Source: an uncultured Bacilli bacterium (lineage in GTDB: Bacteria; Bacillota_I; Bacilli_A; RF39; UBA660). Taken from it: DNA of 64,000 bases. The position numbers were made by a program, and so were the translations under genes. Below the pieces are notes generated by a model. The model saw only the letters and a list, made by a program, of their open reading frames with translations, was not told where the DNA came from and ran no database searches. Every line of letters starts with the position of its first letter. Positions within the stretch are counted from its first letter, which is position 1. Positions 8,891 to 53,154 of this stretch are shown here, piece by piece. Location of the stretch: NCBI GenBank assembly GCA_934085595.1, contig CAKOHK010000001.1, positions 145,705 to 209,704 of the forward strand, in the 5' to 3' direction.

Positions 8891-10195
8891 CTATATACTT
8901 TTTATAACTATATTATGTACTCTTTTCTTTTTATTATTTATTATAAATGCATTTTTAAATCTATTTTCCATATCATCTATGTTCTTATTATAATATATAA
9001 TTCCAAGTATATCATTACATCTTATCTTTTTACCTAAGTTTTCATTTATGTATACTCCTACATTATAATCTATATTATCTTCTTTTTTACTTCTTCCAGC
9101 ACCTAAATCAAATACTAGTTTCGCTATTTCTTCTGCATCTATTTTATTTAAATATCCTTCTTTATCACTACTTACTATATATTTATTAGCTTTAATTTCA
9201 AATCCATTTAATGTTCCATGTTGTGCTTTTATCCATTCATAAAACTTAGCTCTTGCCATTCCACTTTTAATACTTAATATAACCATTTCTTTTGCTTTTT
9301 TAAATGTTTTATTAAGTGAAACACTTACCATAGTACTTGCTATATAAATACATAATTCATATAATCTTTTATCATATATTCCATCAAAGAACTTAATTGC
9401 TTCTAATACTTCAAGTTTATTTCCAACATATTTTCCAAGTGGATTTTCCATATCACTAAGAACGCATATTAATTTCTTATTATATCTTTTAGCAATATTT
9501 TTCATAAGTTTACTAAGTTTAATAGCATCTTTCCTATTCTTCATGAAAGCACCACTACCTACTTTTAAATCTATAACTATACTATCAGCGCCACAAGCAA
9601 TCTTCTTAGACATAATAGAACTTGCTATTAAAGGTATTGAATTAGTAGCTCCAATTTCATTTCTAAGTGCATATATTTTTTTATCAGCAATGCACATATC
9701 ATCACTTTGACTAATTACATAACATCCTACTTTAGATAAAATATTTTTACTCTCTTCATCACTTATATTAAGTTTATAACCGCGAATGCTCTCAAGCTTA
9801 TCAGCAGTTCCACCAGTAAGTCCAAGACCCCTACCACTCATTTTAGGAACAGCCACTCCAAGAGATGCTACAATCGGAGCAACTATTATTGATACTTTAT
9901 CTCCAACTCCACCAGTAGAATGTTTATCTACTATCTTTTTATCTAAAAAACTCATATCATTAACTTTACCACTTTTAATCATAACATCAGTTAAATAATA
10001 AGTTTCTTCTTCGCTAATACCATTATTATATATATTAAGAATAAACTTACTCATATCTTTATCATTTATTTTGCCTTTAACATACCCCATAACCATATAT
10101 TCTATTTCACTATAAGTAAGTTTTTCTTTACCAGTTTTATTAATAATCTTATCTTTCATATATTCCCTTTCTATTCTATAACTATTATATAACAA
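8891..10195 (-). CDS. pdp: Pyrimidine-nucleoside (thymidine) phosphorylase
   Basis: 434 aa. HSTGGVGDKVS and SGRGLGLTGGTADKLESI are the family's signature motifs. Confidence 0.9.
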   Translation of the reverse strand: MLYNSYRIEREYMKDKIINKTGKEKLTYSEIEYMVMGYVKGKINDKDMSKFILNIYNNGISEEETYYLTDVMIKSGKVNDMSFLDKKIVDKHSTGGVGDKVSIIVAPIVASLGVAVPKMSGRGLGLTGGTADKLESIRGYKLNISDEESKNILSKVGCYVISQSDDMCIADKKIYALRNEIGATNSIPLIASSIMSKKIACGADSIVIDLKVGSGAFMKNRKDAIKLSKLMKNIAKRYNKKLICVLSDMENPLGKYVGNKLEVLEAIKFFDGIYDKRLYELCIYIASTMVSVSLNKTFKKAKEMVILSIKSGMARAKFYEWIKAQHGTLNGFEIKANKYIVSSDKEGYLNKIDAEEIAKLVFDLGAGRSKKEDNIDYNVGVYINENLGKKIRCNDILGIIYYNKNIDDMENRFKNAFIINNKKKRVHNIVIKSI

Positions 10196-10231: not shown

Positions 10232-11266
10232 CTATTTATCAAGAACTAATCTCGTTAGTGAATCTGAATAATTAATTCCATTACTAAACTTACTAGCTTT
10301 ATTAAAAGTATCTACACTCATAGATGCAATCATATTATACTTAAGTTCTTTTAATATCTCATCATAATATTTAGTAGTAGAAACAAGTTGATCATTATAT
10401 TTTGCATTCTCTTCAAAAACTCTTGCATCTACACTATTATCATATTTTATTAATCTTTCTATACTATCATCTCCATATAAAAATCTAACAAACACATTTT
10501 CTAATCCAGTAGACCATAAAGAACCATTTTCATCTTTATATCTTGTATTTCTTTGAATATCATTAAGTATATCTACTATACGATCAAAATCATATGAAAC
10601 CCTATATTTCCTAATCATATCGCCTTCTACTTTTAAATAAGTATCATTACTACAATTACGAAATACAAGATACCTAATATAATCTTTTTTACTTATTTCA
10701 TCTATTACTTCATAACTTATTGCTTCCATAACTGATTCATATAAACTTTTAAGATTAGGAAGATTAGAAGCTACATTTCTTTGTCTATATAACTCTCTTA
10801 TTTTATATAATTCTTTAGCATTAGCATTATTATCTTCTCTTTCTTTTATTTCTTTATCTATTAAAGAAACTAAATCTTCTTCACCATTATATTTTAAAAG
10901 TCCACTAATCGCAAGAGCTCCCATATATTCATTACTAAAGCATATATCATCTAAAAAAAATTCTTCTTCATCTTCTTCATCAAAATCATAAGCAACTCCA
11001 AGTAACATCGCAGTAAGTTTATAAAGTAAAGAATGATAAACTAATTTATATTCTATTTTTCCATCTTTACCTTCTTCTATAGTACTATCATCAAACTTTA
11101 CATACTTAAAATCAAGATCTTTTTTATCAAGAACGCCTTTATCTAACTTACTAGAATATTCAAAGTTACCCTTTCTAATCTCTAAAAATAAATCTTTAAG
11201 TTTATCATAATCAATATCTACTTTATATTTATAAAGCATTCCATCTTTTTCTTCAATATATTTCAT
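10232..11266 (-). CDS. Tandem-array paralog 1 (344 aa), unknown function
   Basis: Starts MKYIEEKDGMLYKYKVDIDYDKLKDL and ends LTRLVLDK, with GGAGG 7 nt upstream. Shares an N-domain, a DLVSLIDKEIKERE hinge and a C-domain (ELYxQRxVAS..., INIFR-like, FPxxxYNM, YYxEILxEL) with 11292..16902. Confidence 0.6.
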   Translation of the reverse strand: MKYIEEKDGMLYKYKVDIDYDKLKDLFLEIRKGNFEYSSKLDKGVLDKKDLDFKYVKFDDSTIEEGKDGKIEYKLVYHSLLYKLTAMLLGVAYDFDEEDEEEFFLDDICFSNEYMGALAISGLLKYNGEEDLVSLIDKEIKEREDNNANAKELYKIRELYRQRNVASNLPNLKSLYESVMEAISYEVIDEISKKDYIRYLVFRNCSNDTYLKVEGDMIRKYRVSYDFDRIVDILNDIQRNTRYKDENGSLWSTGLENVFVRFLYGDDSIERLIKYDNSVDARVFEENAKYNDQLVSTTKYYDEILKELKYNMIASMSVDTFNKASKFSNGINYSDSLTRLVLDK

Positions 11267-11291
11267 TTCAAAACCTCCATTAAATACTATA

Positions 11292-12143
11292 TTATTTTTT
11301 AAGAACTAATTTTGATATTTCTTCTTCACTTACATCATTATCAAATTCCATTATTCTTGTAACTACTTCCTTAGGTCCAGTTTCAATTAATTCAAATCTA
11401 AGTTCATTTAATATCTCATCATAATAATCTTGAGGTAAACCTACATTCATATTATATTTACTATTTGGAAACTCTATTCTAGCATCCATTAATAATTTAA
11501 TAGTTTCATCTATGTTACCATTGCTTATAGTAAGTTTATCAGCAACACCAAGTTGCTTAAAACGTTCTAAGCATCCACGTCTAAATATATTAATTTTTTC
11601 TTTTTTACTATCATATTGTATTAATGCTGAAATATATTCCTTTCCATTTAATACACCCCTTAATATCTGTTCTAAATTAGTCTTTGTCACAAAATATTCA
11701 GAATCCATAAATCCAGTATTTTCATCCAAATTAGCAAGTATTTCTTCCATCTTTTGTCTATCAAATGTTACTTCAAATTTATAATAAGAATCACCATCTA
11801 TTTTTAAATATTGAGTTTCAGATAAAGCTAATACTTTTTTACCCTTCAAATACTCTTCTTTACTTATTTCATCTACTTTTTCAAAATCAAAGTATTTCAT
11901 AAACTCATCAAATCTACCTACAAATCCAATAGGTCCAAATCGTTTAGCTATTGCTTCTTTTCTATCATATAATTTCTTTATTTCACATAATTCTTTAAAT
12001 GCATTATCAAAATCTAGTGCTTTTCTAAAAGCACATTTTCTTCTTTCAATATCTTCATCTATTGATAATAGTAGTTTATCTTCTTCCCTAGCTTTTACAA
12101 GATATTTATAAAGCATTCCATCTTTTTCTTCAATATATATCAT
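11292..12143 (-). CDS. Tandem-array paralog 2, internally deleted (N-domain mostly missing)
   Basis: Likely start MIYIEEKDGMLYKY at 12143 with GGAGG upstream. The ORF track begins 8 codons earlier at 12167. After about 25 aa it jumps straight into the C-domain (KELCEIKKLYDRKEAIAKRF...) and ends ISKLVLKK. Confidence 0.5.
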   Translation of the reverse strand: MIYIEEKDGMLYKYLVKAREEDKLLLSIDEDIERRKCAFRKALDFDNAFKELCEIKKLYDRKEAIAKRFGPIGFVGRFDEFMKYFDFEKVDEISKEEYLKGKKVLALSETQYLKIDGDSYYKFEVTFDRQKMEEILANLDENTGFMDSEYFVTKTNLEQILRGVLNGKEYISALIQYDSKKEKINIFRRGCLERFKQLGVADKLTISNGNIDETIKLLMDARIEFPNSKYNMNVGLPQDYYDEILNELRFELIETGPKEVVTRIMEFDNDVSEEEISKLVLKK

Positions 12144-12156
12144 TTTAAAACCTCCT

Positions 12157-13346
12157 CTAATTAACACATATTATAATATGTTCTATTTTTTTTGTCAATG
12201 ATAATTTCATCACTTCTTCACTTATACCTTCATCAAACTCTACTGCTTTTTTAACTTCTTCCACGCTTTCACTATCAATTAATTTAAATCTTAGTTCACT
12301 TAATATCTCATCATAGTATGCTTGAGGTTCTACTGTTAACTTCGTATTAAATTTACTATAAGGAAATTCGGCTTTAACACTCATTAATCGATCAATAATT
12401 TTGTCTATATCATCACCCATATTATCAGCAATTTCTTTTAAACGTTTTGCATACTTACGTCTAAATATATTAATTTCTTCTTTTTCACTATCATACTTAA
12501 GTAATGATGAAATATCTCCTCTTCCCTTTAATATACTTCTTAATATACATTCTAAATTAGTACTTATTATTATACCTTCATAATTCATAAAGCCACTATT
12601 TTTAACTAGTTTATTAAGTATTTCTTCCATATTATCTTTATTATATGTTACTTCATATTTACAATAACTACCGCATTCTATTTTCAAGCATTGATCTTTA
12701 GATAAAGCAAATATTTCTCTATCTTTAAGATACTCTTCTTTATTTATTTCTCCTACTTTTTTGAAACTAATACAGCCCATAACTTCAGCATACTTATCTA
12801 AAAATCCTGCAGGACTTAAAAGTTTTGACGCTACTTCTCTTTGATAATATAACTCTTCTATCTTAGAAGCTTCTTTAAGTTTACGCTCAGAATCACGTCC
12901 ATACACTCCATCATCTATTATTTTTTTCTTCCTTCTATTTCTTCATCTATTAAAGAAACTAAACTCTCTTCTCCTTCATAATTCAAAAGATTAGAAAGAC
13001 CTAGTATTTGTACATAGTTACTATCAAACCTTTTACCACTAGCATATAGTTCTTTATCAAGCGCTTCAATATTATCATCAAAATCAGCTAACCTACTTAC
13101 ATATTTATAAAGTTTTGAATAGTAAGTTAAATGATAACATAGTCTTTCACCAATTTTACTTTCAGTAATACTATCAGCATAACAAAAATCTAAATCATCC
13201 GCCTTAAGTATTCCATCCTTTAATAACCTATGGTAAATAAAATTACCCTTTCTTATTTCAGAAAATACCTCTTCAAGTCTATCATAATCAATATCTACTT
13301 TATATTTATAAAGCATTCCATCTTTTTCTTCAATATATATCATCAA
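12157..13346 (-). pseudogene. Tandem-array paralog 3, split by a frameshift at an A7 homopolymer. The two ORFs are 12918..13346 (N-domain) and 12157..12906 (C-domain)
   Basis: The N-half ends ...LVSLIDEEIEGRKK*. The C-half continues in the +1 frame as IIDDGVYGRDSERKLKEASKIEELYYQRE. The junction is minus-strand ggaagAAAAAAAtaatag (plus T7 at 12921-12927). One extra A would give a single ORF of about 398 aa. Confidence 0.6.
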
Positions 13347-13365
13347 AAGCTCCCTTAAATCTGTA

Positions 13366-14562
13366 TTACTTTTTAAGAACTAATCTTGATACTATTTCTT
13401 TATTTATTTCACTTTCAAACTTTTCACATCTAGCATATTCTTCAAGATCCATAGTAGAAATTAAAGTAAACTTTAGTTTACTCATTATTTTTTTATAATA
13501 ATCTTGAGGTAACTTTACTTTCATATTATATTCAGCATTTGGAAAATCTTTTTTAGCCGCTTCTAATAACTCAGTTATACGCATCAAATCTTCTTCATTT
13601 TTTCCTTTTTTATTTAACAGCTCTTCAATCTCTTTATAACGCTCATTACATTCTTTTCTGAAAATATTAATTTCTTCTTCAGCACTATTATAATTGATAA
13701 GTTCAGAAATATTAGCTTTACGATCAAATACATCACGTAATATATCTTCTAATTTAGTGGAACGTACATAGACATAAGGTTTATATCCAGTATTTCTATA
13801 TAAAGCATCAGACAATTCTCTCATATTATTTCTATTAAATGTTACTTTATATTTTTGAACATTGTTTCCTTGCACTCTTACATATGTATCATAGCTTTGA
13901 TTAGTAAAGCCTAAATATTTTTCATAGTCTTCTTTACTTATCTCATCTACTTTTTCAAAACTTATAGTTTCCATAACAGATTCATATAGTTTTGAAACAT
14001 CTAAAAGACTAGCTGCTTCTTCTCTTTGATTATATAACTCTTTTATTTTATAAGCTTCCCTAAGTTTCTTATCAAAATCAAATTTATTTTTTTTACTTTC
14101 TAACACTTTAATTCTTTCTTTAATTTCTTCATTTATTAAAGAAACTAGATCTTCTTCTCCATCATATTTTAAAAGTTCAATAAGACTTAATAGTTTTAAA
14201 TATTCACTATCAATCTTTCTATCAAGAGGGTACATTTGATCAGCAAAGTATAAATCATCTCTATGACATTTAACCTCATCTTCATAGCCAAGTAATCTAC
14301 CAATAATTATATAAAGTCTTGAACAGTGAACTAATTCATAACAAGTACCCAACATATCACCATTATTAGAAAGCAAATTCTTTTGATCAAACTTTGTATA
14401 TTCAAAATCTATATCATCCCAGTCATGTATATCTTTACCTAATGAACCAGTATAATAAAAATTACCTTCTTCTATCTTTAACATTAATTCTTTAAGTCTT
14501 TCTTCATCAATATCCACTTTATATTTATAAAGCATTCCATCTTTTTCTTCAATATATTTCAT
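13366..14562 (-). CDS. Tandem-array paralog 4 (398 aa)
   Basis: MKYIEEKDGMLYKYKVDIDEERLKEL ... VSRLVLKK. Full two-domain architecture. Confidence 0.6.
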   Translation of the reverse strand: MKYIEEKDGMLYKYKVDIDEERLKELMLKIEEGNFYYTGSLGKDIHDWDDIDFEYTKFDQKNLLSNNGDMLGTCYELVHCSRLYIIIGRLLGYEDEVKCHRDDLYFADQMYPLDRKIDSEYLKLLSLIELLKYDGEEDLVSLINEEIKERIKVLESKKNKFDFDKKLREAYKIKELYNQREEAASLLDVSKLYESVMETISFEKVDEISKEDYEKYLGFTNQSYDTYVRVQGNNVQKYKVTFNRNNMRELSDALYRNTGYKPYVYVRSTKLEDILRDVFDRKANISELINYNSAEEEINIFRKECNERYKEIEELLNKKGKNEEDLMRITELLEAAKKDFPNAEYNMKVKLPQDYYKKIMSKLKFTLISTMDLEEYARCEKFESEINKEIVSRLVLKK

Positions 14563-14587
14563 TTTAAAACCTCCCTTAAATATAAAA

Positions 14588-15709
14588 TTATTTACAAAGT
14601 ACTAACTTAGATGCTACTTCTTCACTTATTCCACTTTCAAACTCTTCTACTTTCTTATATGTTTCAATATCCATAGAAGAAACATTTTCATAATTAAGTT
14701 CACATAATATCTTTTCATAATATCCATATGTTGGAACTATACTCATATTATATTCTGCATAAGGAAAACTATTTCTAACTTCTTCTGTCACATTAATAAG
14801 ATCATCAACACTATTAGAATCTAAAGTGCCTATCTTTTTGGACTGTTCCATGCACTCTCTTCTATATATATTTATTTTTTCTTTATCAGGTTCGTAACTC
14901 AATAATGAAGTTATATTAGTTTTACCATTAATAAACTCAATTAATAGTTTCTCAAGTTCTGTACTTTCAAACTTACCAGAAGCATCCTTATAACGAGTAT
15001 CCATCTGCATAAGACGAAGTAAATAAACAAGACGATTCATATCAAAACATACTTTATTTTTATTAATATATTTTCCATCTTTTACCAAGAATGAATTATT
15101 ATCACATTTACATAGTTCCCTATATTTAGTATAATCTTTCAAACTTATTTCATCTATTTTTTCATAAGTTATTGTATTCATAATATCACTATAAAACCTA
15201 GTAATATCAGGAAGACTAGCTGCTTTTTCTCTTTGATTATATAGTTCTTTTAATATATATAGTCTAGTAAGTCTACCATTAAAATCATATTTAGATAAAC
15301 CACTATAAAGATTCTCTTTTCTCTTTTCTATTTCTTTATCTATTAAAGAAACCAAATCCACTTCCCCACTATAACTTTCAAGTTCATAAAGAGCATACAT
15401 CCTATCATACTCATCACAGTTACTTTTAGAAATTACATCATACTCTAATAATCTATTAGCAAGCTTATATAAATTAGAATAAAGAACTAATTCATAAGAT
15501 AACCCTTTTTCTCTACTAATACTATCTTCATCAAAATCTATATATGAAGTAAAATCTAAATCTTTATATGTAAGTGTTCCTTCTTCTACATCATGACTAT
15601 AATAAAAATTACCATCTTCTATCTTTAATATTAATTCTTTAAGTCTTTCTTCATCTATATCCACTTTATATTTATAAATCATTCCATCTTTTTCTTCAAT
15701 ATATATCAT
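14588..15709 (-). CDS. Tandem-array paralog 5 (373 aa)
   Basis: MIYIEEKDGMIYKYKVDIDEERLKEL ... ASKLVLCK. Confidence 0.6.
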   Translation of the reverse strand: MIYIEEKDGMIYKYKVDIDEERLKELILKIEDGNFYYSHDVEEGTLTYKDLDFTSYIDFDEDSISREKGLSYELVLYSNLYKLANRLLEYDVISKSNCDEYDRMYALYELESYSGEVDLVSLIDKEIEKRKENLYSGLSKYDFNGRLTRLYILKELYNQREKAASLPDITRFYSDIMNTITYEKIDEISLKDYTKYRELCKCDNNSFLVKDGKYINKNKVCFDMNRLVYLLRLMQMDTRYKDASGKFESTELEKLLIEFINGKTNITSLLSYEPDKEKINIYRRECMEQSKKIGTLDSNSVDDLINVTEEVRNSFPYAEYNMSIVPTYGYYEKILCELNYENVSSMDIETYKKVEEFESGISEEVASKLVLCK

Positions 15710-15735
15710 TTCAAAACCTCCTTTAAATACTTATA

Positions 15736-16902
15736 CTATTTACCAAGCACTAATTTAGATGCTGCTTCTTTATTTACTTCACTATCAAACTCTTGAGCTT
15801 TGTTATATATTTCACTATCTAGTGAAGGAATAAAAGTATATCTAAGTTCCTTAATTATTTCTTCATAATATGAATCAGTTGAATCTATGCTCATATTATA
15901 TTCAGCATATGGAAACTCATTTCTAAGTTTTTCCATTAGCTCAATCTCACCATCAATATTTTCTTCACTAAGTAAACCAATCTTTCTATAGCGTTCAGCA
16001 CATTTCTTTTTAAAAATATTTGCTTGTTCTTCTTCACTATTATAATTAATTAATGAAGAAATATCTCCTCCTTCATCAAGTATATTAACTAATATACGTT
16101 CTAAATTAGTTGGTACTAATCTTCCATCAAGAGCTTTAAATCTTGTATTATCTTCAATACTTTCTAATATATTTCTCATTCTCTCTTCATCAAATGAAAC
16201 TAAATATTTTCTAGCGTTTTCATTTTCAGTTTTACTAATAATTCTTGAGTTATAGTTAGATAAAACTAAATAAGCCATATAATCTTCTTTTAGAATCTCA
16301 TCTATTCTTTCAAAACTTATAGTGCTCATAACAGCATAAACAAATCTTCTAGCGTCCACAACGTCAGATGCCACTTTTCTTTGTTTATATAGCTCCTTTA
16401 TCTTATAAAGTTCTCCGCACTTTCCAGCATAATCAAACTTAGATGGTTCATTTCCGAGTAAACTTTCTCTTTCCTTAATTTCCTCATCTATTAAAGAAAC
16501 CAAATCCTTTTCACCATTATAATTTAAGAGTTCAAAAAGCCCAGAAGTCATTATATAATCTCTAATATCATCTTCATCACTAAATGGCTCCACGTAATAT
16601 TCTTCAATATCTTCAATATCTTCTTCCATACCAAGTAGTTTATTAACAATCTTATATAAATTTGAATAATAAACAAGTTCATATCTAGAACTAAATAAAC
16701 CGTCACTAAAAATCCAATTTATACTATCAAATCTTGTATAATCAAAATCTAATTCATCAAACTCTAACTTATCTTCATCTAGCGAATTAGAATATTTAAA
16801 GTTACACCCTTTCATCTCATTAAATATTTTTCTAAGTCTTTCTTCATCTATATCTACTTTATACTTATAAATCATTCCATCTTTTTCTTCTAAATATATC
16901 AT
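15736..16902 (-). CDS. Tandem-array paralog 6 (388 aa)
   Basis: MIYLEEKDGMIYKYKVDIDEERLRKI ... ASKLVLGK. GGAGG lies 12 nt after the stop of the upstream metallophosphoesterase gene. Confidence 0.6.
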   Translation of the reverse strand: MIYLEEKDGMIYKYKVDIDEERLRKIFNEMKGCNFKYSNSLDEDKLEFDELDFDYTRFDSINWIFSDGLFSSRYELVYYSNLYKIVNKLLGMEEDIEDIEEYYVEPFSDEDDIRDYIMTSGLFELLNYNGEKDLVSLIDEEIKERESLLGNEPSKFDYAGKCGELYKIKELYKQRKVASDVVDARRFVYAVMSTISFERIDEILKEDYMAYLVLSNYNSRIISKTENENARKYLVSFDEERMRNILESIEDNTRFKALDGRLVPTNLERILVNILDEGGDISSLINYNSEEEQANIFKKKCAERYRKIGLLSEENIDGEIELMEKLRNEFPYAEYNMSIDSTDSYYEEIIKELRYTFIPSLDSEIYNKAQEFDSEVNKEAASKLVLGK

Positions 16903-16914
16903 TTCAAAACCTCC

Positions 16915-18021
16915 CTATTTGATACCGTATCTTTTACTAAACTTATCTATCATAGATAAACTTCTACTATCTCCTACTTCTTCAATAATCTCTTCTTCTA
17001 TAACTTCTTGTGTTATTTCTTCACACACACTACTTTCTTCTTCTTTAAACTGTACATATCTTTTAAACTTATTTTCCGGACTACACACTATATGTGTCAT
17101 AATACTACTCTCTCCAAGAGATATAACCTTATGATCATTATTTAACCATAGTTCCTTTACATTTACAAGTGATATAGTATTATTTCCAGTATTAATAGTT
17201 ATATCTAAAAAACAAGGACACATTTCATTATTAATCATAATATCACTTAAAGTAGGAACTTTAATATATAAACTATTAGCGTGCTCTCTTATCTTAAATC
17301 TGTGTTCATGTCCACTAAGTACTATTCCACAAGCACTTTCTATATCAAGTTTAGTATTATTTTTATATGTTTTACCTAAGTCATGTCTCATAAATATATT
17401 AATCTTAGATAAAACAACTTTAGAAAGACCATACCCAGTAAACACCATATCATGCCTTCTAGAATTAATCATTTCCCCAATATCTATATTAAACTTCTCA
17501 TAAAAACTCATATCATGATTTCCACCAATCATAAAATTAATAATATTTTTATCAAACGGATATTTCTTAATCGTACTATCAATCATATCTATAGGATCAC
17601 TATAATTAACTTTATATATTGACGAAGGCATAAATCCTTCAAATATATCACCACTATTAAATATAATATTTATTCCATTCTTCTTAGCATAATCATATAC
17701 TATTTCCATATATCTATTATCTGAATATTTACTCTCTCTATGTTCATCACTAACAGCTATTATTCTATATATTCTATTAGTACTTTGCATAGGATTTCCA
17801 ACTATAAATATATCTTTATCTTCATTATTAAAAACACTTTTAATTCCATAAGTAATATTACCATTATCATGATAAAATCTATCTAAATTAATACCATAAC
17901 ATTTAAGTCTATTAAGTTTAATATATAACTGTTTATTACTAATTCCAAGTGTGCTAGCCATCTCATTAGCACTCTTCCCGTTTTTAATCATCTCTATTAT
18001 TTTAGCATTGTCTTCATCCAT
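16915..18021 (-). CDS. Helix-turn-helix N-terminal domain fused to a calcineurin-like metallophosphoesterase
   Basis: 368 aa. N-terminal GKSANEMASTLGISNKQLYIKLNRLK looks like an HTH. MPE motifs appear in canonical order: SDEH, GDIFEG, GGNHD, RHD, SGHEHR. Confidence 0.65.
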   Translation of the reverse strand: MDEDNAKIIEMIKNGKSANEMASTLGISNKQLYIKLNRLKCYGINLDRFYHDNGNITYGIKSVFNNEDKDIFIVGNPMQSTNRIYRIIAVSDEHRESKYSDNRYMEIVYDYAKKNGINIIFNSGDIFEGFMPSSIYKVNYSDPIDMIDSTIKKYPFDKNIINFMIGGNHDMSFYEKFNIDIGEMINSRRHDMVFTGYGLSKVVLSKINIFMRHDLGKTYKNNTKLDIESACGIVLSGHEHRFKIREHANSLYIKVPTLSDIMINNEMCPCFLDITINTGNNTISLVNVKELWLNNDHKVISLGESSIMTHIVCSPENKFKRYVQFKEEESSVCEEITQEVIEEEIIEEVGDSRSLSMIDKFSKRYGIK

Positions 18022-20300: not shown

Positions 20301-21818
20301 TTATTCTATAACAAATGGATTATCTTTACTTCCATCACCTGACATATATTGCACACTCGAAGATAAAAATAATACGGGTCTTATATTATTATCAGTGTTA
20401 GTAGGCAAATAACTAGTTAAAGATCCATCATTAACTATGTTCATTACATTAGCAGCACTACCAGAACGAGGCGAAATTGTCCAATAATAAGAAGAATTAG
20501 CTAACCAATTAGTACTTGTACAAGTAGAATTATTATATGAACTTCCTAAAGTAGATGTATTATAGCATCCGCTACTTGCATACATATAATCACTCGGATA
20601 TACAAGTCCAACTTCTCCATCCCATGTTTGTTTATTTCCACTTGGCACACTTGTACTTCTTTCTTGAGTATATACTTGTTTTGTATTTCCAAAACTCATT
20701 CCATTTAATACTATATTTCCAAGATACCATTTTGTACTGCTTATTTGATTTCTTGCTTCAGCCGTTAATCCATTACTTGCATATGTTCCAGTTCTATTGT
20801 AATAATTCCCACTATTTAATGTTGTCTTTAAAGATGCTGTTGTCCAATCATTTTTTGATGCAGAAAACGCCACTTTTCCTATTTGATTCCTAATTATTTT
20901 TACTTTATTTTCTTTAGTATATGTTCCATCTTCATTTGGTGTTTCCACTTCAAATACCCCAATTATTCTCCATCTCTCAATTTCATCATTAAATGTTATA
21001 TAATTATTTGGACTTTTACCTTGATATCTATATTCAGTTGAATTATATTTTTGATTACCTGTTGCAGTTTGGTCAATTTTGGTTAGCTTCAAAGTTTGAT
21101 AATTACTTACTAAATACGTCACCAAAGATTTACTTTCTTCAAAATATAAACTGCATTTAGTTTGTTTATTTGAACCTATAATTATTTTTTTATTTAAAGT
21201 ATCATATTCTACTGTAGCATCATTATTACAAGTATAACTCTTTAACTTATAATATTTATTTAAATCGAGTTCATTTACTCTCTCACTATCAACATATAAT
21301 GCTGTTGTTTCAAAATCATATTTCCAGTAGTCATCTAAAATTTCTGTATATGTATCAAGAACTTTAATTTCATCTACGTCGTTAAATGAATATCCCCCAA
21401 ATACCATAAGTGATAATGTTTGTTTTTCATTGCTTTCATTTTTAATTATAAGTGATATTGTTCTTTTAGTGAGTATTCCTCCAAATGCTGGTTCAAGATA
21501 ATCTGAAGCATATTTAACATCAATGTAATCGTTATTTAAATATGCAAGTTTATAGTTAGTAGAAACTGCATTTAAACTTGTTATTTCTATAGTATGTTCT
21601 GTTTCTCCTGGATCTATATCAATAGTATAAGTGTTTTCATCATCTATTTTTATAGAATACAAAAGTTCCGAAATATACATTTCATTACTTCTATAACTTT
21701 CACTGTTTATAGTAAACTTCGCATAACTAAATGCAAGTAACGGACAAAGTCCGATCAACACTAAAACTATAAAAATGTTTTTCTTTATATAATATATTAC
21801 ATTTTTTCTTATACTCAT
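20301..21818 (-). CDS. Secreted TasA/camelysin-like protein with the shared unrecognised C-terminal domain (family member P1)
   Basis: 505 aa. Signal peptide ends ...LLAFSYAKFTINSE (SipW-cognate-like). C-terminal 260 aa carry NYQTLKLTKIDQTATGNQKYNSTEYRYQG, WRIIGVFEVETP, NQISSTKWYLGN, YPSDYMYASSGCY and NIRPVLFL. Confidence 0.6.
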   Translation of the reverse strand: MSIRKNVIYYIKKNIFIVLVLIGLCPLLAFSYAKFTINSESYRSNEMYISELLYSIKIDDENTYTIDIDPGETEHTIEITSLNAVSTNYKLAYLNNDYIDVKYASDYLEPAFGGILTKRTISLIIKNESNEKQTLSLMVFGGYSFNDVDEIKVLDTYTEILDDYWKYDFETTALYVDSERVNELDLNKYYKLKSYTCNNDATVEYDTLNKKIIIGSNKQTKCSLYFEESKSLVTYLVSNYQTLKLTKIDQTATGNQKYNSTEYRYQGKSPNNYITFNDEIERWRIIGVFEVETPNEDGTYTKENKVKIIRNQIGKVAFSASKNDWTTASLKTTLNSGNYYNRTGTYASNGLTAEARNQISSTKWYLGNIVLNGMSFGNTKQVYTQERSTSVPSGNKQTWDGEVGLVYPSDYMYASSGCYNTSTLGSSYNNSTCTSTNWLANSSYYWTISPRSGSAANVMNIVNDGSLTSYLPTNTDNNIRPVLFLSSSVQYMSGDGSKDNPFVIE

Positions 21819-21842
21819 CTTGATATACCTTCTTATATTAGA

Positions 21843-21874
21843 ATTATATCATAGGGTACCCCCCCCCCCGTCAA
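21843..21874 (-). promoter_or_regulatory. Candidate promoter of P1 containing a perfect homopolymeric tract (C11 on plus, G11 on the coding strand) between the -35 and -10 elements
   Basis: Minus strand reads cgccacTTGACgGGGGGGGGGGtaccctatgaTATAAT. C11 spans 21859-21869, the -35 is cgtcaa 21869-21874, and TATAAT is 21843-21848. The spacer of about 20 nt would be tuned by tract length. Confidence 0.45.
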
Positions 21875-21957
21875 GTGGCGAATGTGTATTTGCTTTAAGT
21901 ACTTCAAGTTTTTACAAAAAAATAGCAAACATTTTATATCATGTTCACTATTTATTA

Positions 21958-22356
21958 TTATTTATTTAACTCTTTATTTTGATAATCTTCTATAGCTGCT
22001 TTTATTGCTTCTTCAGCAAGTACTGAACAATGCATCTTTACTGGAGGTAATCCATCAAGTGCTTCAGCAACAGCTTTATTTGTTAAAGTTAACGCTTCAC
22101 TAATACTTTTACCTTTAATAAGTTCTGTTGCCATTGAAGAAGTAGCAATAGCGGAAGCACAACCAAATGTCTTAAACTTAACATCTGTTATAATTCCATC
22201 TTTTACTTTAATATACATCTTCATAACATCCCCACATACAGGGTTACCAACAGTACCTATTCCATCAGCATCTTCAATAACTCCAACATTTCTTGGATTT
22301 TCAAAATGATCCATAACTTTTTCTGAATACATTATTTTTTCTCCTCCTCTTCCCAT
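21958..22356 (-). CDS. iscU: Fe-S cluster assembly scaffold NifU/IscU
   Basis: 132 aa. DHFENPRNVG, GNPVCGD and HC motifs. Confidence 0.9.
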   Translation of the reverse strand: MGRGGEKIMYSEKVMDHFENPRNVGVIEDADGIGTVGNPVCGDVMKMYIKVKDGIITDVKFKTFGCASAIATSSMATELIKGKSISEALTLTNKAVAEALDGLPPVKMHCSVLAEEAIKAAIEDYQNKELNK

Positions 22357-23504
22357 AATGGTGACATATCTCTAAGTCTATCAATAATTTCTACCATACT
22401 ATCAATTAAATAATCTACTTCTTCTTTAGTATTATGTTTTCCTATACTTACTCTAATTGAACCATGTGCAACTTCATGAGGTAATCCAGTAGCAAGTAAC
22501 ACATATGATGGTTCTAGACTCTTAGAAGAACAAGCACTACCAGTACTAACACATATACCTTTAGCATCTAAAAGTAGTAATATACTCTCCCCTTCAACAC
22601 ATTTAAATGAGAAGTTAGCATTCCCTGGAAGTCTATCATTCCTGTCCCCATTTAATATAACCTCTGGTATTCTCTTTTCTATTTCACTTATATAGTAATC
22701 TCTAAGTTCTTTGATTCTCTTAGTATTTTCATCAAAATCTCTATAAGCCTTTTCAATAGCATAACTAATTCCAATTATACCAGGAGTATTTTCTGTACCA
22801 CTTCTTTTATCTTTCTCTTGGTGTCCTCCATCATTAATTCTACTAATTCTAACTCCAGTTCTAACAAACAAAACACCAATTCCTTTAGGTCCATAAAACT
22901 TATGTCCTGACATACTAAGCATATCTATATTCATTTCATTTACATCTATAAGTACGCTTCCAACTGCCTGAACAGCATCTGTATGAAATACTATATTATG
23001 TTTATGAGCTATTTCTCCTATTTCTTTAATAGGTTCTATAGTACCTATTTCATTATTAGCAAACATAATACTAATTAAAATAGTATCTTCTCTAATAGCA
23101 TCTTCTAATTCTTTAAGACTTATCTTACCATTTTTATCTACCCCAAGATAAGTAACTTCAAATCCTTCTTTTTCAAGCGCTTTCATACTATTAATAATAG
23201 CAGGATGCTCTATACATGATGTAATAATATGTTTTCCTTTATGTTTATTAGCAAGAGCAAACCCTTTAACAGCTAAATTATCACTTTCAGTTCCACCAGA
23301 AGTAAAATATATTTCACTTCCCTTAGCATTTATACATCCAGCTATTCTATCTCTTGCCTCATTTACTTCTTTATTTAAATCTTGACTTACACTATATATT
23401 GAAGATGGATTATAATACTTATCCATAAAATAAGGTTTCATTTTCTCAAATACTTCACTATCTAGCATAGTAGTCGCAGAATTATCAAAATATTTTATAT
23501 TCAT
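22332..23504 (-). CDS. iscS: Cysteine desulfurase NifS/IscS
   Basis: 390 aa. SGHKFYGPKGIGVL PLP-lysine region and CSSKSLEPSYVLLAT motif. Confidence 0.9.
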   Translation of the reverse strand: MNIKYFDNSATTMLDSEVFEKMKPYFMDKYYNPSSIYSVSQDLNKEVNEARDRIAGCINAKGSEIYFTSGGTESDNLAVKGFALANKHKGKHIITSCIEHPAIINSMKALEKEGFEVTYLGVDKNGKISLKELEDAIREDTILISIMFANNEIGTIEPIKEIGEIAHKHNIVFHTDAVQAVGSVLIDVNEMNIDMLSMSGHKFYGPKGIGVLFVRTGVRISRINDGGHQEKDKRSGTENTPGIIGISYAIEKAYRDFDENTKRIKELRDYYISEIEKRIPEVILNGDRNDRLPGNANFSFKCVEGESILLLLDAKGICVSTGSACSSKSLEPSYVLLATGLPHEVAHGSIRVSIGKHNTKEEVDYLIDSMVEIIDRLRDMSPLWEEEEKK

Positions 23505-52644: not shown

Positions 52645-53154
52645 GTGAGATTTAATATGGATAAAGAAATAATAAAAGAAGAAGAACTAGATAATAAAAA
52701 AGTAATTTTAAGAACAATAAAAATAAATGATACTGAATATGGAAACATCATTTTACCACACTTAACAGATCTAGAATTATTTGAAAGATATAAAAGAATT
52801 AAACCTATAGTAGTTTTTAATAGCTTATGTTACTATTTAAGAGATTATTCATTAAAAGAATTAAGAGGTCAATCATATCTATGGAATGCTCATAATGACA
52901 TAAGAAACAAAGTAGACTTATCAAATACAGAAATTCTAATGGATTTCTCATGTTATCATACTTATGGATATTACGGTTTATTTAAACCTTCTATTGCAGA
53001 AGTTTTAGAACAATTTCCAGATGAAGTTTTAGAAGAAGCAAACGCATTTTACGTGTTATCACATCCAGAAGATATTAGAGATTTAAACTTAGAAAAAAAA
53101 ATTACTGAAGCAGGATGTCATCATTCAAGAGTTAGAGCACTAGTTATAAAATAA
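52645..53154 (+). CDS. Hypothetical protein
   Basis: 169 aa. GGTGAGA RBS-like sequence upstream. Confidence 0.4.
   Translation: MRFNMDKEIIKEEELDNKKVILRTIKINDTEYGNIILPHLTDLELFERYKRIKPIVVFNSLCYYLRDYSLKELRGQSYLWNAHNDIRNKVDLSNTEILMDFSCYHTYGYYGLFKPSIAEVLEQFPDEVLEEANAFYVLSHPEDIRDLNLEKKITEAGCHHSRVRALVIK

Follow-up and report, generated by a model that had tools for sequence, protein, structure and literature searches.

A genuine frameshift beside an A7 run in a tandem orphan gene array of an uncultured gut Bacilli bacterium, probably marking a stable, decaying pseudogene

When one member of a tandem gene array breaks at the edge of a homopolymer, is the break a sequencing or assembly error, the OFF state of a phase-variable switch, or a pseudogene? 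The 64,000-nucleotide stretch of DNA analyzed here (the window) raises this question for the fourth of six tandem minus-strand paralogs (10232–16902), and all three readings had been offered in the initial annotation of the locus. Our comparison with related contigs in public metagenome assemblies indicates that the lesion is genuine and inherited, and points to decay as the likely explanation.

The break in the fourth array copy

The array and the gene directly upstream of it are organized as follows:

16915–18021, minus strand: gene for an HTH and calcineurin-like metallophosphoesterase protein, directly upstream of the array in every locus reaching that far
15736–16902, minus strand: array copy 1, 388 aa, intact paralog
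14588–15709, minus strand: array copy 2, 373 aa, intact paralog
13366–14562, minus strand: array copy 3, 398 aa, intact paralog, with an AlphaFold2 model (pLDDT 85.5)
12918–13343, minus strand: N-terminal fragment of copy 4, 141 aa from ATG 13343; an identical protein is encoded on 15 public contigs
12157–12906, minus strand: C-terminal fragment of copy 4, 249 aa when GTG 12906 is taken as the start; an identical protein is encoded on 18 public contigs
11292–12143, minus strand: array copy 5, 283 aa, without most of the N-domain; 283 aa wherever fully covered in the fetched loci
10232–11266, minus strand: array copy 6, with 344 aa in the window, 351 aa in certain strains and only a 48-aa remnant in L018–L022

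Within copy 4, three short features define the lesions, with L001 denoting the contig that carries the nearest intact ortholog:

12921–12927, minus strand: A7 homopolymer at the frameshift junction, of length 7 in the window and in 16 other split-allele contigs
12918–12920, minus strand: premature TAA stop produced by the frameshift, directly 3' of the A7 run; GGAAGAAAAAAATAATAG in the window against GGAAGAAAAAAATTAATAG in L001
12186–12193, minus strand: second homopolymer lesion, A8 in the window against L001, where the fetched relatives except L025 have A7

Read from the window on the minus strand, the junction is GAAATAGAAGGAAG-AAAAAAA-TAATAGATGATGGAGTG, with the codons GAA ATA GAA GGA AGA AAA AAA TAA TAG ATG ATG GAG TG. 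The N-terminal ORF, called as 12918–13346, therefore ends in ...EEIEGRKK*, and ATG 13343 is the likelier start than 13346, an SD (GGGAG) preceding it at 13350–13354. Relative to this fragment the C-domain lies in the −1 (equivalently +2) frame. Insertion of one A yields a single uninterrupted ORF of 395 aa from the ATG, reading GRKKIIDDGVYGRDSE. The minus-strand sequence and the ORFs thus confirm that one array copy is split by a frameshift beside an A7 run, as had been proposed; the accompanying statement that an A8 would restore a full-length protein is arithmetically right, although the length is 395 aa from the ATG and not 398. At the site of the premature stop, intact alleles read TTA ATA (Leu-Ile), and the frame of copy 4 is disrupted with respect both to its orthologs (386, 383 and 392 aa) and to the five paralogs in the window.

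Two further properties of the junction bear on its interpretation. The A7 run, together with the preceding A of the AGA codon, forms a formal −1 slippery heptamer, A_AAA_AAA. In addition, the break aligns with the end of helix 139–154 in the AlphaFold2 model of copy 3, and the paralog alignment places the most length-variable loop of the family directly after the break point. The run is not remarkable in itself, because A/T runs of at least 7 nt are common in this 26.7%-GC window, where 61 of them occur in 64 kb, i.e., about one per kb.

Recurrence of the split allele and the intact junction states

The same A7+T junction was found in 17 fetched contigs, which derive from approximately 15 independent gut-metagenome assemblies and represent two strain backgrounds. 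Eight fetched contigs of the window type (L002–L009) trace to different samples and to three kinds of assembly—metaSPAdes NODE contigs from Hadza samples, MEGAHIT k141 contigs and MERR22 scaffolds, all of them short-read—and are 99.94–100% identical to the window over 2–20.4 kb (up to 20,426 bp); they therefore represent one clonal strain sampled many times. The second background (L026–L032; seven contigs fetched, eight on record) carries an identical junction and differs from the window by 10–12 SNPs within the 1.19-kb gene (~1%). Overall, about 26 of the ~80 contigs carrying copy 4 have the split allele. A homopolymer sequencing or assembly error concealing an intact gene, one of the possibilities initially raised, draws its one support from the general prior that homopolymer-adjacent frameshifts are commonly artefactual. 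It is refuted because contigs from ~15 independent samples, assembled in three different styles, share the junction across two strain backgrounds; moreover, the nearest intact relatives (L001) differ by one T, with the length of the A run unchanged. We give this reading virtually no chance of being correct.

The nearest intact ortholog, P0015 on L001, is 99% identical to copy 4. Over 6.5–7.1 kb, the window and L001 differ by 60–63 substitutions and only two indels, both of which fall within copy 4. At the junction, L001 has A7-TTAATAG (KKLIDD) against A7-TAATAG in the window, i.e., equal A runs and a difference of one T. All eleven alleles of this A7+TT type fetched as DNA (L001, L010–L017 with L012, L023, L024 and L038) also have A7 at the C-terminal tract. 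Apart from L025 and L033, every intact allele fetched as DNA has A7 followed by TTA, at least 15 distinct intact single-ORF protein alleles read KKL, and A7+TT (Leu) is present in the more divergent 383-aa alleles as well. On this allele distribution, the ancestral and commonest intact state is A7+TT (A7+TTA), not A8.

An A8 allele does exist. The 392-aa protein P0050, a member of the 90%-identity cluster of P0015, reads GRKKIIDDGV, and its contig L025 has A8-TAATAG; the junction of L033 is likewise A8+T. The A8 allele predicted in the initial annotation is thus real, but it is rare and sits on distinct SNP haplotypes. Similarly, the comparison of orthologous loci that had been suggested there did yield intact orthologs, although these mostly carry A7+TTA, with A8 confined to L025 and L033. 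The notion of the A7 as a shortened run fails for the commonest intact allele, which has the same A7 followed by TTA; a shortening from A8 would hold against the rare A8+T alleles only, the nearest as well as the commonest intact alleles being A7+TT. Three junction states are therefore found in copy 4: A7+TT in frame with Leu, A8+T in frame with Ile, and the frameshifted A7+T. On the T1 background, the A-run lengths at the junction and at the C-terminus pair as 8/8 in L025, 8/7 in L033, 7/8 in the window and 7/7 in the L026 group; since all four combinations occur, recombination or recurrent slippage is required.

SNP haplotypes were used to ask which nucleotide was lost, and they reveal copy 4 as a mosaic. 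In its 5' part the L026-group alleles match the A8+T alleles and the window matches L001; between −108 and +312 relative to the junction, the two split groups do not differ. Within this central block, L038 (A7+TT) lies 1 SNP from the split allele, and L001 (A7+TT) and L033 (A8+T) lie 2 SNPs each; over the 1.19 kb of the gene, A8+T and split alleles are separated by 17–20 SNPs. The haplotypes would accordingly slightly favour a T deletion from A7+TT, with a likelihood barely better than even. The mutational mechanism favours A8-to-A7 slippage, because the other short indels among closely related copy 4 alleles are of the slippage type: three short indel polymorphisms are found in these 386-aa-type alleles, all at simple repeats, and the others comprise the C-terminal A7-to-A8 change on two local haplotypes and an (AAAT)2-to-(AAAT)3 change in L033. 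The functional conclusion is the same whether a T was deleted or A8 slipped to A7.

Decay, switching and residual function

Copy 4 carries lesions beyond the junction. In the window, the A8 at 12186–12193 puts the normal stop (TAG, 12183–12185) out of frame, and the resulting stop loss adds nine residues (IEHIIICVN), the ORF end at 12157–12159 overlapping the SD of copy 5. In L001 the corresponding C-terminus is ACA-A7-TAG (...LTKK*), resembling the LVLKK* of the paralogs. The A8 of L025 sits on a different local haplotype, and this tract has probably mutated twice. Two samples of the second background, represented by L028 (~1507) and L030 (~323), share an AAA>TAA change at about window position 13106 that creates K80* in the N-fragment; as their copy 4 alleles are already frameshifted, this is a second disabling lesion. 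L033 has an independent copy 4 frameshift on its A8+T allele, caused by an (AAAT)2-to-(AAAT)3 tandem duplication at ~5935 (about window position 12749) that splits the copy into 202 and 167 aa. When the window was compared with seven other strains over 9–18 kb, the only coding indels altering a frame in the window were the two in copy 4. Added lesions of the kind expected under relaxed constraint after a first break were therefore found, namely the stop loss at 12186–12193 and K80* in L028 and L030. Counts of nonsynonymous and synonymous substitutions gave no separable signal of relaxed selection in copy 4, substitutions being few and the ratio high in every copy of the array.

The reality and stability of the lesion, its allele spectrum and the secondary lesions are direct observations; from the sequences we infer the loss of copy 4 function, as well as the identity of the lost nucleotide. 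In the scenario we propose, a single-nucleotide frameshift at the 3' edge of the A7 run would inactivate copy 4, or at least cut it in two. The lesion would have arisen once or twice by replication error, either through loss of a T from A7-TTA or through A8-to-A7 slippage in A8-TA, and the split allele would then have spread both vertically and by homologous recombination, becoming fixed in the clonal strain of the window and entering a second strain background. Toggling does not occur at a rate visible against SNP accumulation, and copy 4 is gathering lesions; because of this combination—no visible toggling and accumulating damage—copy 4 appears to behave as a decaying pseudogene. Turnover of the array as a whole also speaks for decay: copy number varies, copy 6 is reduced to 48 aa in L018–L022, N- and C-domains are mosaic, and copy 5 has lost most of its N-domain. 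We consider it likely that copy 4 is a stable, lineage-specific decaying pseudogene within a dynamic, recombining and species-restricted orphan family. The earlier suggestion of a fresh pseudogene holds insofar as the lesion is passed on, does not vary within clones and has extra lesions beside it, but the allele is not very fresh, as it occurs in two backgrounds ~1% apart in the gene. Like ordinary frameshift pseudogenes of fast-turnover multigene families, copy 4 has a single-nucleotide indel at or beside a mononucleotide run, intact orthologs and paralogs, a lineage-restricted lesion, further lesions (stop loss and nonsense) and an independent loss elsewhere. Unlike them, it retains both fragments as open frames in most carriers and is present in two recombinant backgrounds at appreciable frequency, features that leave room for adaptive loss or residual function.

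A phase-variable ON/OFF switch, the remaining possibility raised at the outset, is not supported by the behavior of the tract. No length variation was seen within the clonal groups, the junction being A7+T in 10 of 10 window-type and 7 of 7 second-type sequences, as read from consensus contigs, many of 2–5x coverage, in which minority A8 reads would not show. Instability at the junction would have been visible, because two poly-G tracts in the same data vary between near-identical strains. Alleles with tract lengths that could serve as ON and OFF, A8+T (L025, L033) and A7+T, exist on different haplotypes, and the majority ON allele is A7+TT; from the 17–20 SNPs that separate A8+T from split alleles, it follows that A7/A8 changes occur no faster than substitution. 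The run is, in addition, shorter than the ~9 nt at which A/T runs generally slip and at which many bacteria typically begin to show selection against slippage-prone runs (Baranov et al. 2005, PMC1088944), so that it does not reach a hypermutable length. A slow, contingency-type switch could still operate if the tract slipped between A8+T (ON, KKIIDD) and A7+T (OFF) during replication and selection on copy 4 fluctuated between hosts or phage exposures. Such a switch would agree with the downstream TAATAG shared by the A8+T contigs and the A7+T contigs (window, L026–L032), with the single slippage step between the two states, with the occurrence of all four A7/A8 pairs at the junction and C-terminus (which needs recurrent slippage or recombination), with the slippage character of the other short indels among closely related alleles, and with the repeated hits to copy 4, whose SD in sister strains is a variable poly-G (G5/7/8/9). 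We nevertheless judge it quite unlikely, given 17 invariant sequences across the two clonal split groups, the SNP distance of the A8+T haplotypes, a closest intact central-block haplotype that is A7+TT (L038), the shortness of the A7/A8 run, and the K80* in L028 and L030, a decay left unreversed. Simple-sequence contingency loci are exemplified by the poly-G/C tracts of Campylobacter, Neisseria and Haemophilus and the poly-A/T tracts of Helicobacter. Copy 4 is like these loci in having a coding mononucleotide run with alleles of putative ON (A8+T) and OFF (A7+T) length in the species; it is unlike them in that its tract is short (7–8 A) and invariant among clonal sequences, its ON and OFF states lie on different SNP haplotypes, and the difference between its commonest ON allele and the OFF allele is one T, with A7 in both.

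It is also conceivable, if unlikely, that copy 4 still works, either as two polypeptides—the 141-aa N-domain and a C-domain re-initiated at GTG 12906, 11 nt past the premature stop—or as a minority full-length product arising from −1 slippage or from an extra A inserted during transcription. Helix 139–154 ends where the break falls, and a variable inter-domain loop follows; in copy 5, every strain retains a naturally occurring form with the C-domain only; both fragments are open in most split contigs; and the split allele persists in two backgrounds, in roughly a third of copy 4 contigs. Against two functional polypeptides, GTG 12906 is without a convincing or usable SD of its own, K80* removes most of the N-fragment in L028 and L030 with no apparent consequence, and the stop-loss extension suggests relaxed constraint. 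Regarding recoding, programmed −1 ribosomal frameshifting at A_AAA_AAG/A is known from dnaX and from IS3/IS1 transposases, and like these copy 4 has a zero-frame heptamer of the canonical X_XXY_YYZ form, with the downstream ORF in the −1 frame: the slippery motif is in the correct frame (A_AAA_AAA_UAA), a −1 slip gives exactly GRKKIIDDGV, and the peptide bridging the junction in a recoded product would be GRKKIIDDGVYGR. A little full-length copy 4 protein could thus be made through the heptamer followed by the stop. Unlike dnaX and IS3/IS1, however, copy 4 has neither a stimulatory hairpin nor a well-spaced internal SD, and most of its orthologs are single-ORF genes. A search of the junction for a −1 stimulatory element, whether a downstream structure or a well-spaced upstream SD, found none: the fold has an MFE z of −0.9, and just 2 nt separate the upstream SD-like AAGGA from the heptamer, a distance unsuited to stimulating a −1 shift. 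The two-ORF layout is not conserved either, at least 15 distinct intact alleles being single-ORF; and because intact orthologs carry the same heptamer, it did not evolve for recoding. As in the poly(A) frameshifts rescued by transcriptional slippage in Buchnera/Blochmannia, Thermus dnaX and IS elements (PMC1088944), one additional A in the copy 4 mRNA would restore the frame. According to Baranov et al. (2005, PMC1088944), the described cases involve runs of ~9 or more A, with 8 sufficing in certain IS elements of Deinococcus, whereas the run in copy 4 has 7 and its layout is not conserved across orthologs.

Taken alone, the broken copy 4 is probably an unremarkable pseudogene of one lineage and adds another case to a well-known phenomenon. 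Its value lies in the use of public assemblies to identify a homopolymer-adjacent frameshift as genuine biology, neither an error nor a fast switch.

An orphan family in a variable region

Of more interest is the background in which the break occurs: a fast-recombining orphan tandem family with a confident predicted structure and without sequence or fold relatives, whose copy number, domain make-up and integrity vary between strains of one gut bacterium, in a region that also holds two truly length-variable poly-G tracts. No match to the family was found in Pfam, NCBIfam, PADLOC or PHROGs, and a fold search of PDB and BFVD with the copy 3 model returned no relative. The family accounts for 22 clusters among 5.8 billion proteins; a profile search of 1.84 billion representatives returned only 11 proteins below 1e-10, all of the same family, and two scans of GTDB species representatives found no relatives among them. 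So far the array has been seen only in metagenome contigs and in the MAG GCA_964329685.1, and the family does not seem to extend beyond a single species or genus of uncultured gut bacteria.

Among the loci examined (L001–L038), the family is present in 6, 7 or at least 8 copies, and N- and C-domains are mosaic or shuffled between copies, as in P0019 and P0002. The nonsynonymous/synonymous ratio is high in all copies relative to the neighbouring pyrimidine-nucleoside phosphorylase. The array proteins are probably cytoplasmic, no obvious signal peptide being apparent by eye. Each copy has its own GGAGG SD, and the SD plus the first ~60 nt are nearly identical DNA across the six copies (minus-strand starts at 13343, 12143, 11266, 14562, 15709 and 16902), with the shared consensus GGAGGTTTTnAAATGAwATATwTwGAAGAAAAAGATGGAATGmTTTATAArTAT, a degree of conservation well above that of the remaining gene sequence. 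This near-identity would fit gene conversion, or an element for recombination or regulation that the copies have in common. Rfam matches in the 64-kb window comprise two tRNAs only.

A role of the family in some genetic conflict is a reasonable guess, and if the family is a conflict system, the loss pattern of copy 4 would inform on selection in the gut. A more elaborate proposal would make copy 4 contingency-like under fluctuating selection—repeatedly lost through the A7+T frameshift carried by recombination into two backgrounds, through the AAAT duplication and through the nonsense change, re-activatable by A7-to-A8 changes and, in sister strains, tuned through its poly-G SD—within an array that forms a new conflict system (such as phage defence or immunity) tied to the HTH-metallophosphoesterase gene; we regard this combination as quite unlikely.

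The first of the variable tracts is found in sister strains, in which the copy 4 SD (about window position 13350; GGGAG in the window) is a poly-G of 5, 7, 8 or 9 residues, located at ~9989 in L013, ~590 in L017, ~8376 in L014, ~5914 in L016 and ~9990 in L010. Contigs that all encode one and the same 383-aa protein, P0013, have G7, G8 or G9, and L010 and L011 have G5. This tract is the only indel among the P0013-encoding strains over 2.7–14.9 kb, contig L015 breaks there, and its 3' end keeps a fixed 5-nt spacing to the ATG.

The second is a G11 on the minus strand (C11 on the plus strand) at 21859–21869, upstream of the minus-strand ORF 20301–21818, whose 505-aa product has no Pfam match and seems, on visual inspection, to carry a membrane anchor at its N-terminus. 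The tract sits precisely in the interval separating a consensus −35 (TTGACG) from an extended −10 (TGATATAAT), ~40 nt upstream of the gene, and gives a promoter spacer of 20 nt in the window; in L035, which encodes the identical protein, the tract is G9 and the spacer 18 nt. Two contigs, L036 and L037, end at the tract or close to it. The G11 tract is a much better candidate for a phase-variable element, here a promoter, than the A7 run. The region upstream of the 505-aa gene (window 21819–22360, compared with positions 1–3000 of L010 and L013 and 1–1500 of L035) is rearranged between strains, with NifU/IscS genes upstream in the window, TGT/queuosine genes in L035 and a peptide deformylase gene in L010. 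L010 and similar contigs also have a different 505-aa allele, with colicin V and thioredoxin genes inserted downstream.

Two further apparent gene splits occur elsewhere in the fetched loci. In L029, copy 5 is interrupted by Ns at a scaffold gap and not by a mutation. In L019, a single Hadza contig, the pyrimidine-nucleoside phosphorylase downstream of the array (10266–11534; about window positions 8891–10159) is called as 49 and 363 aa instead of 422 aa, which may be a strain-specific disruption or an assembly problem. Finally, the longest A/T run of the window is an A9 at 53093–53101 on the plus strand, inside the plus-strand ORF 52645–53154.
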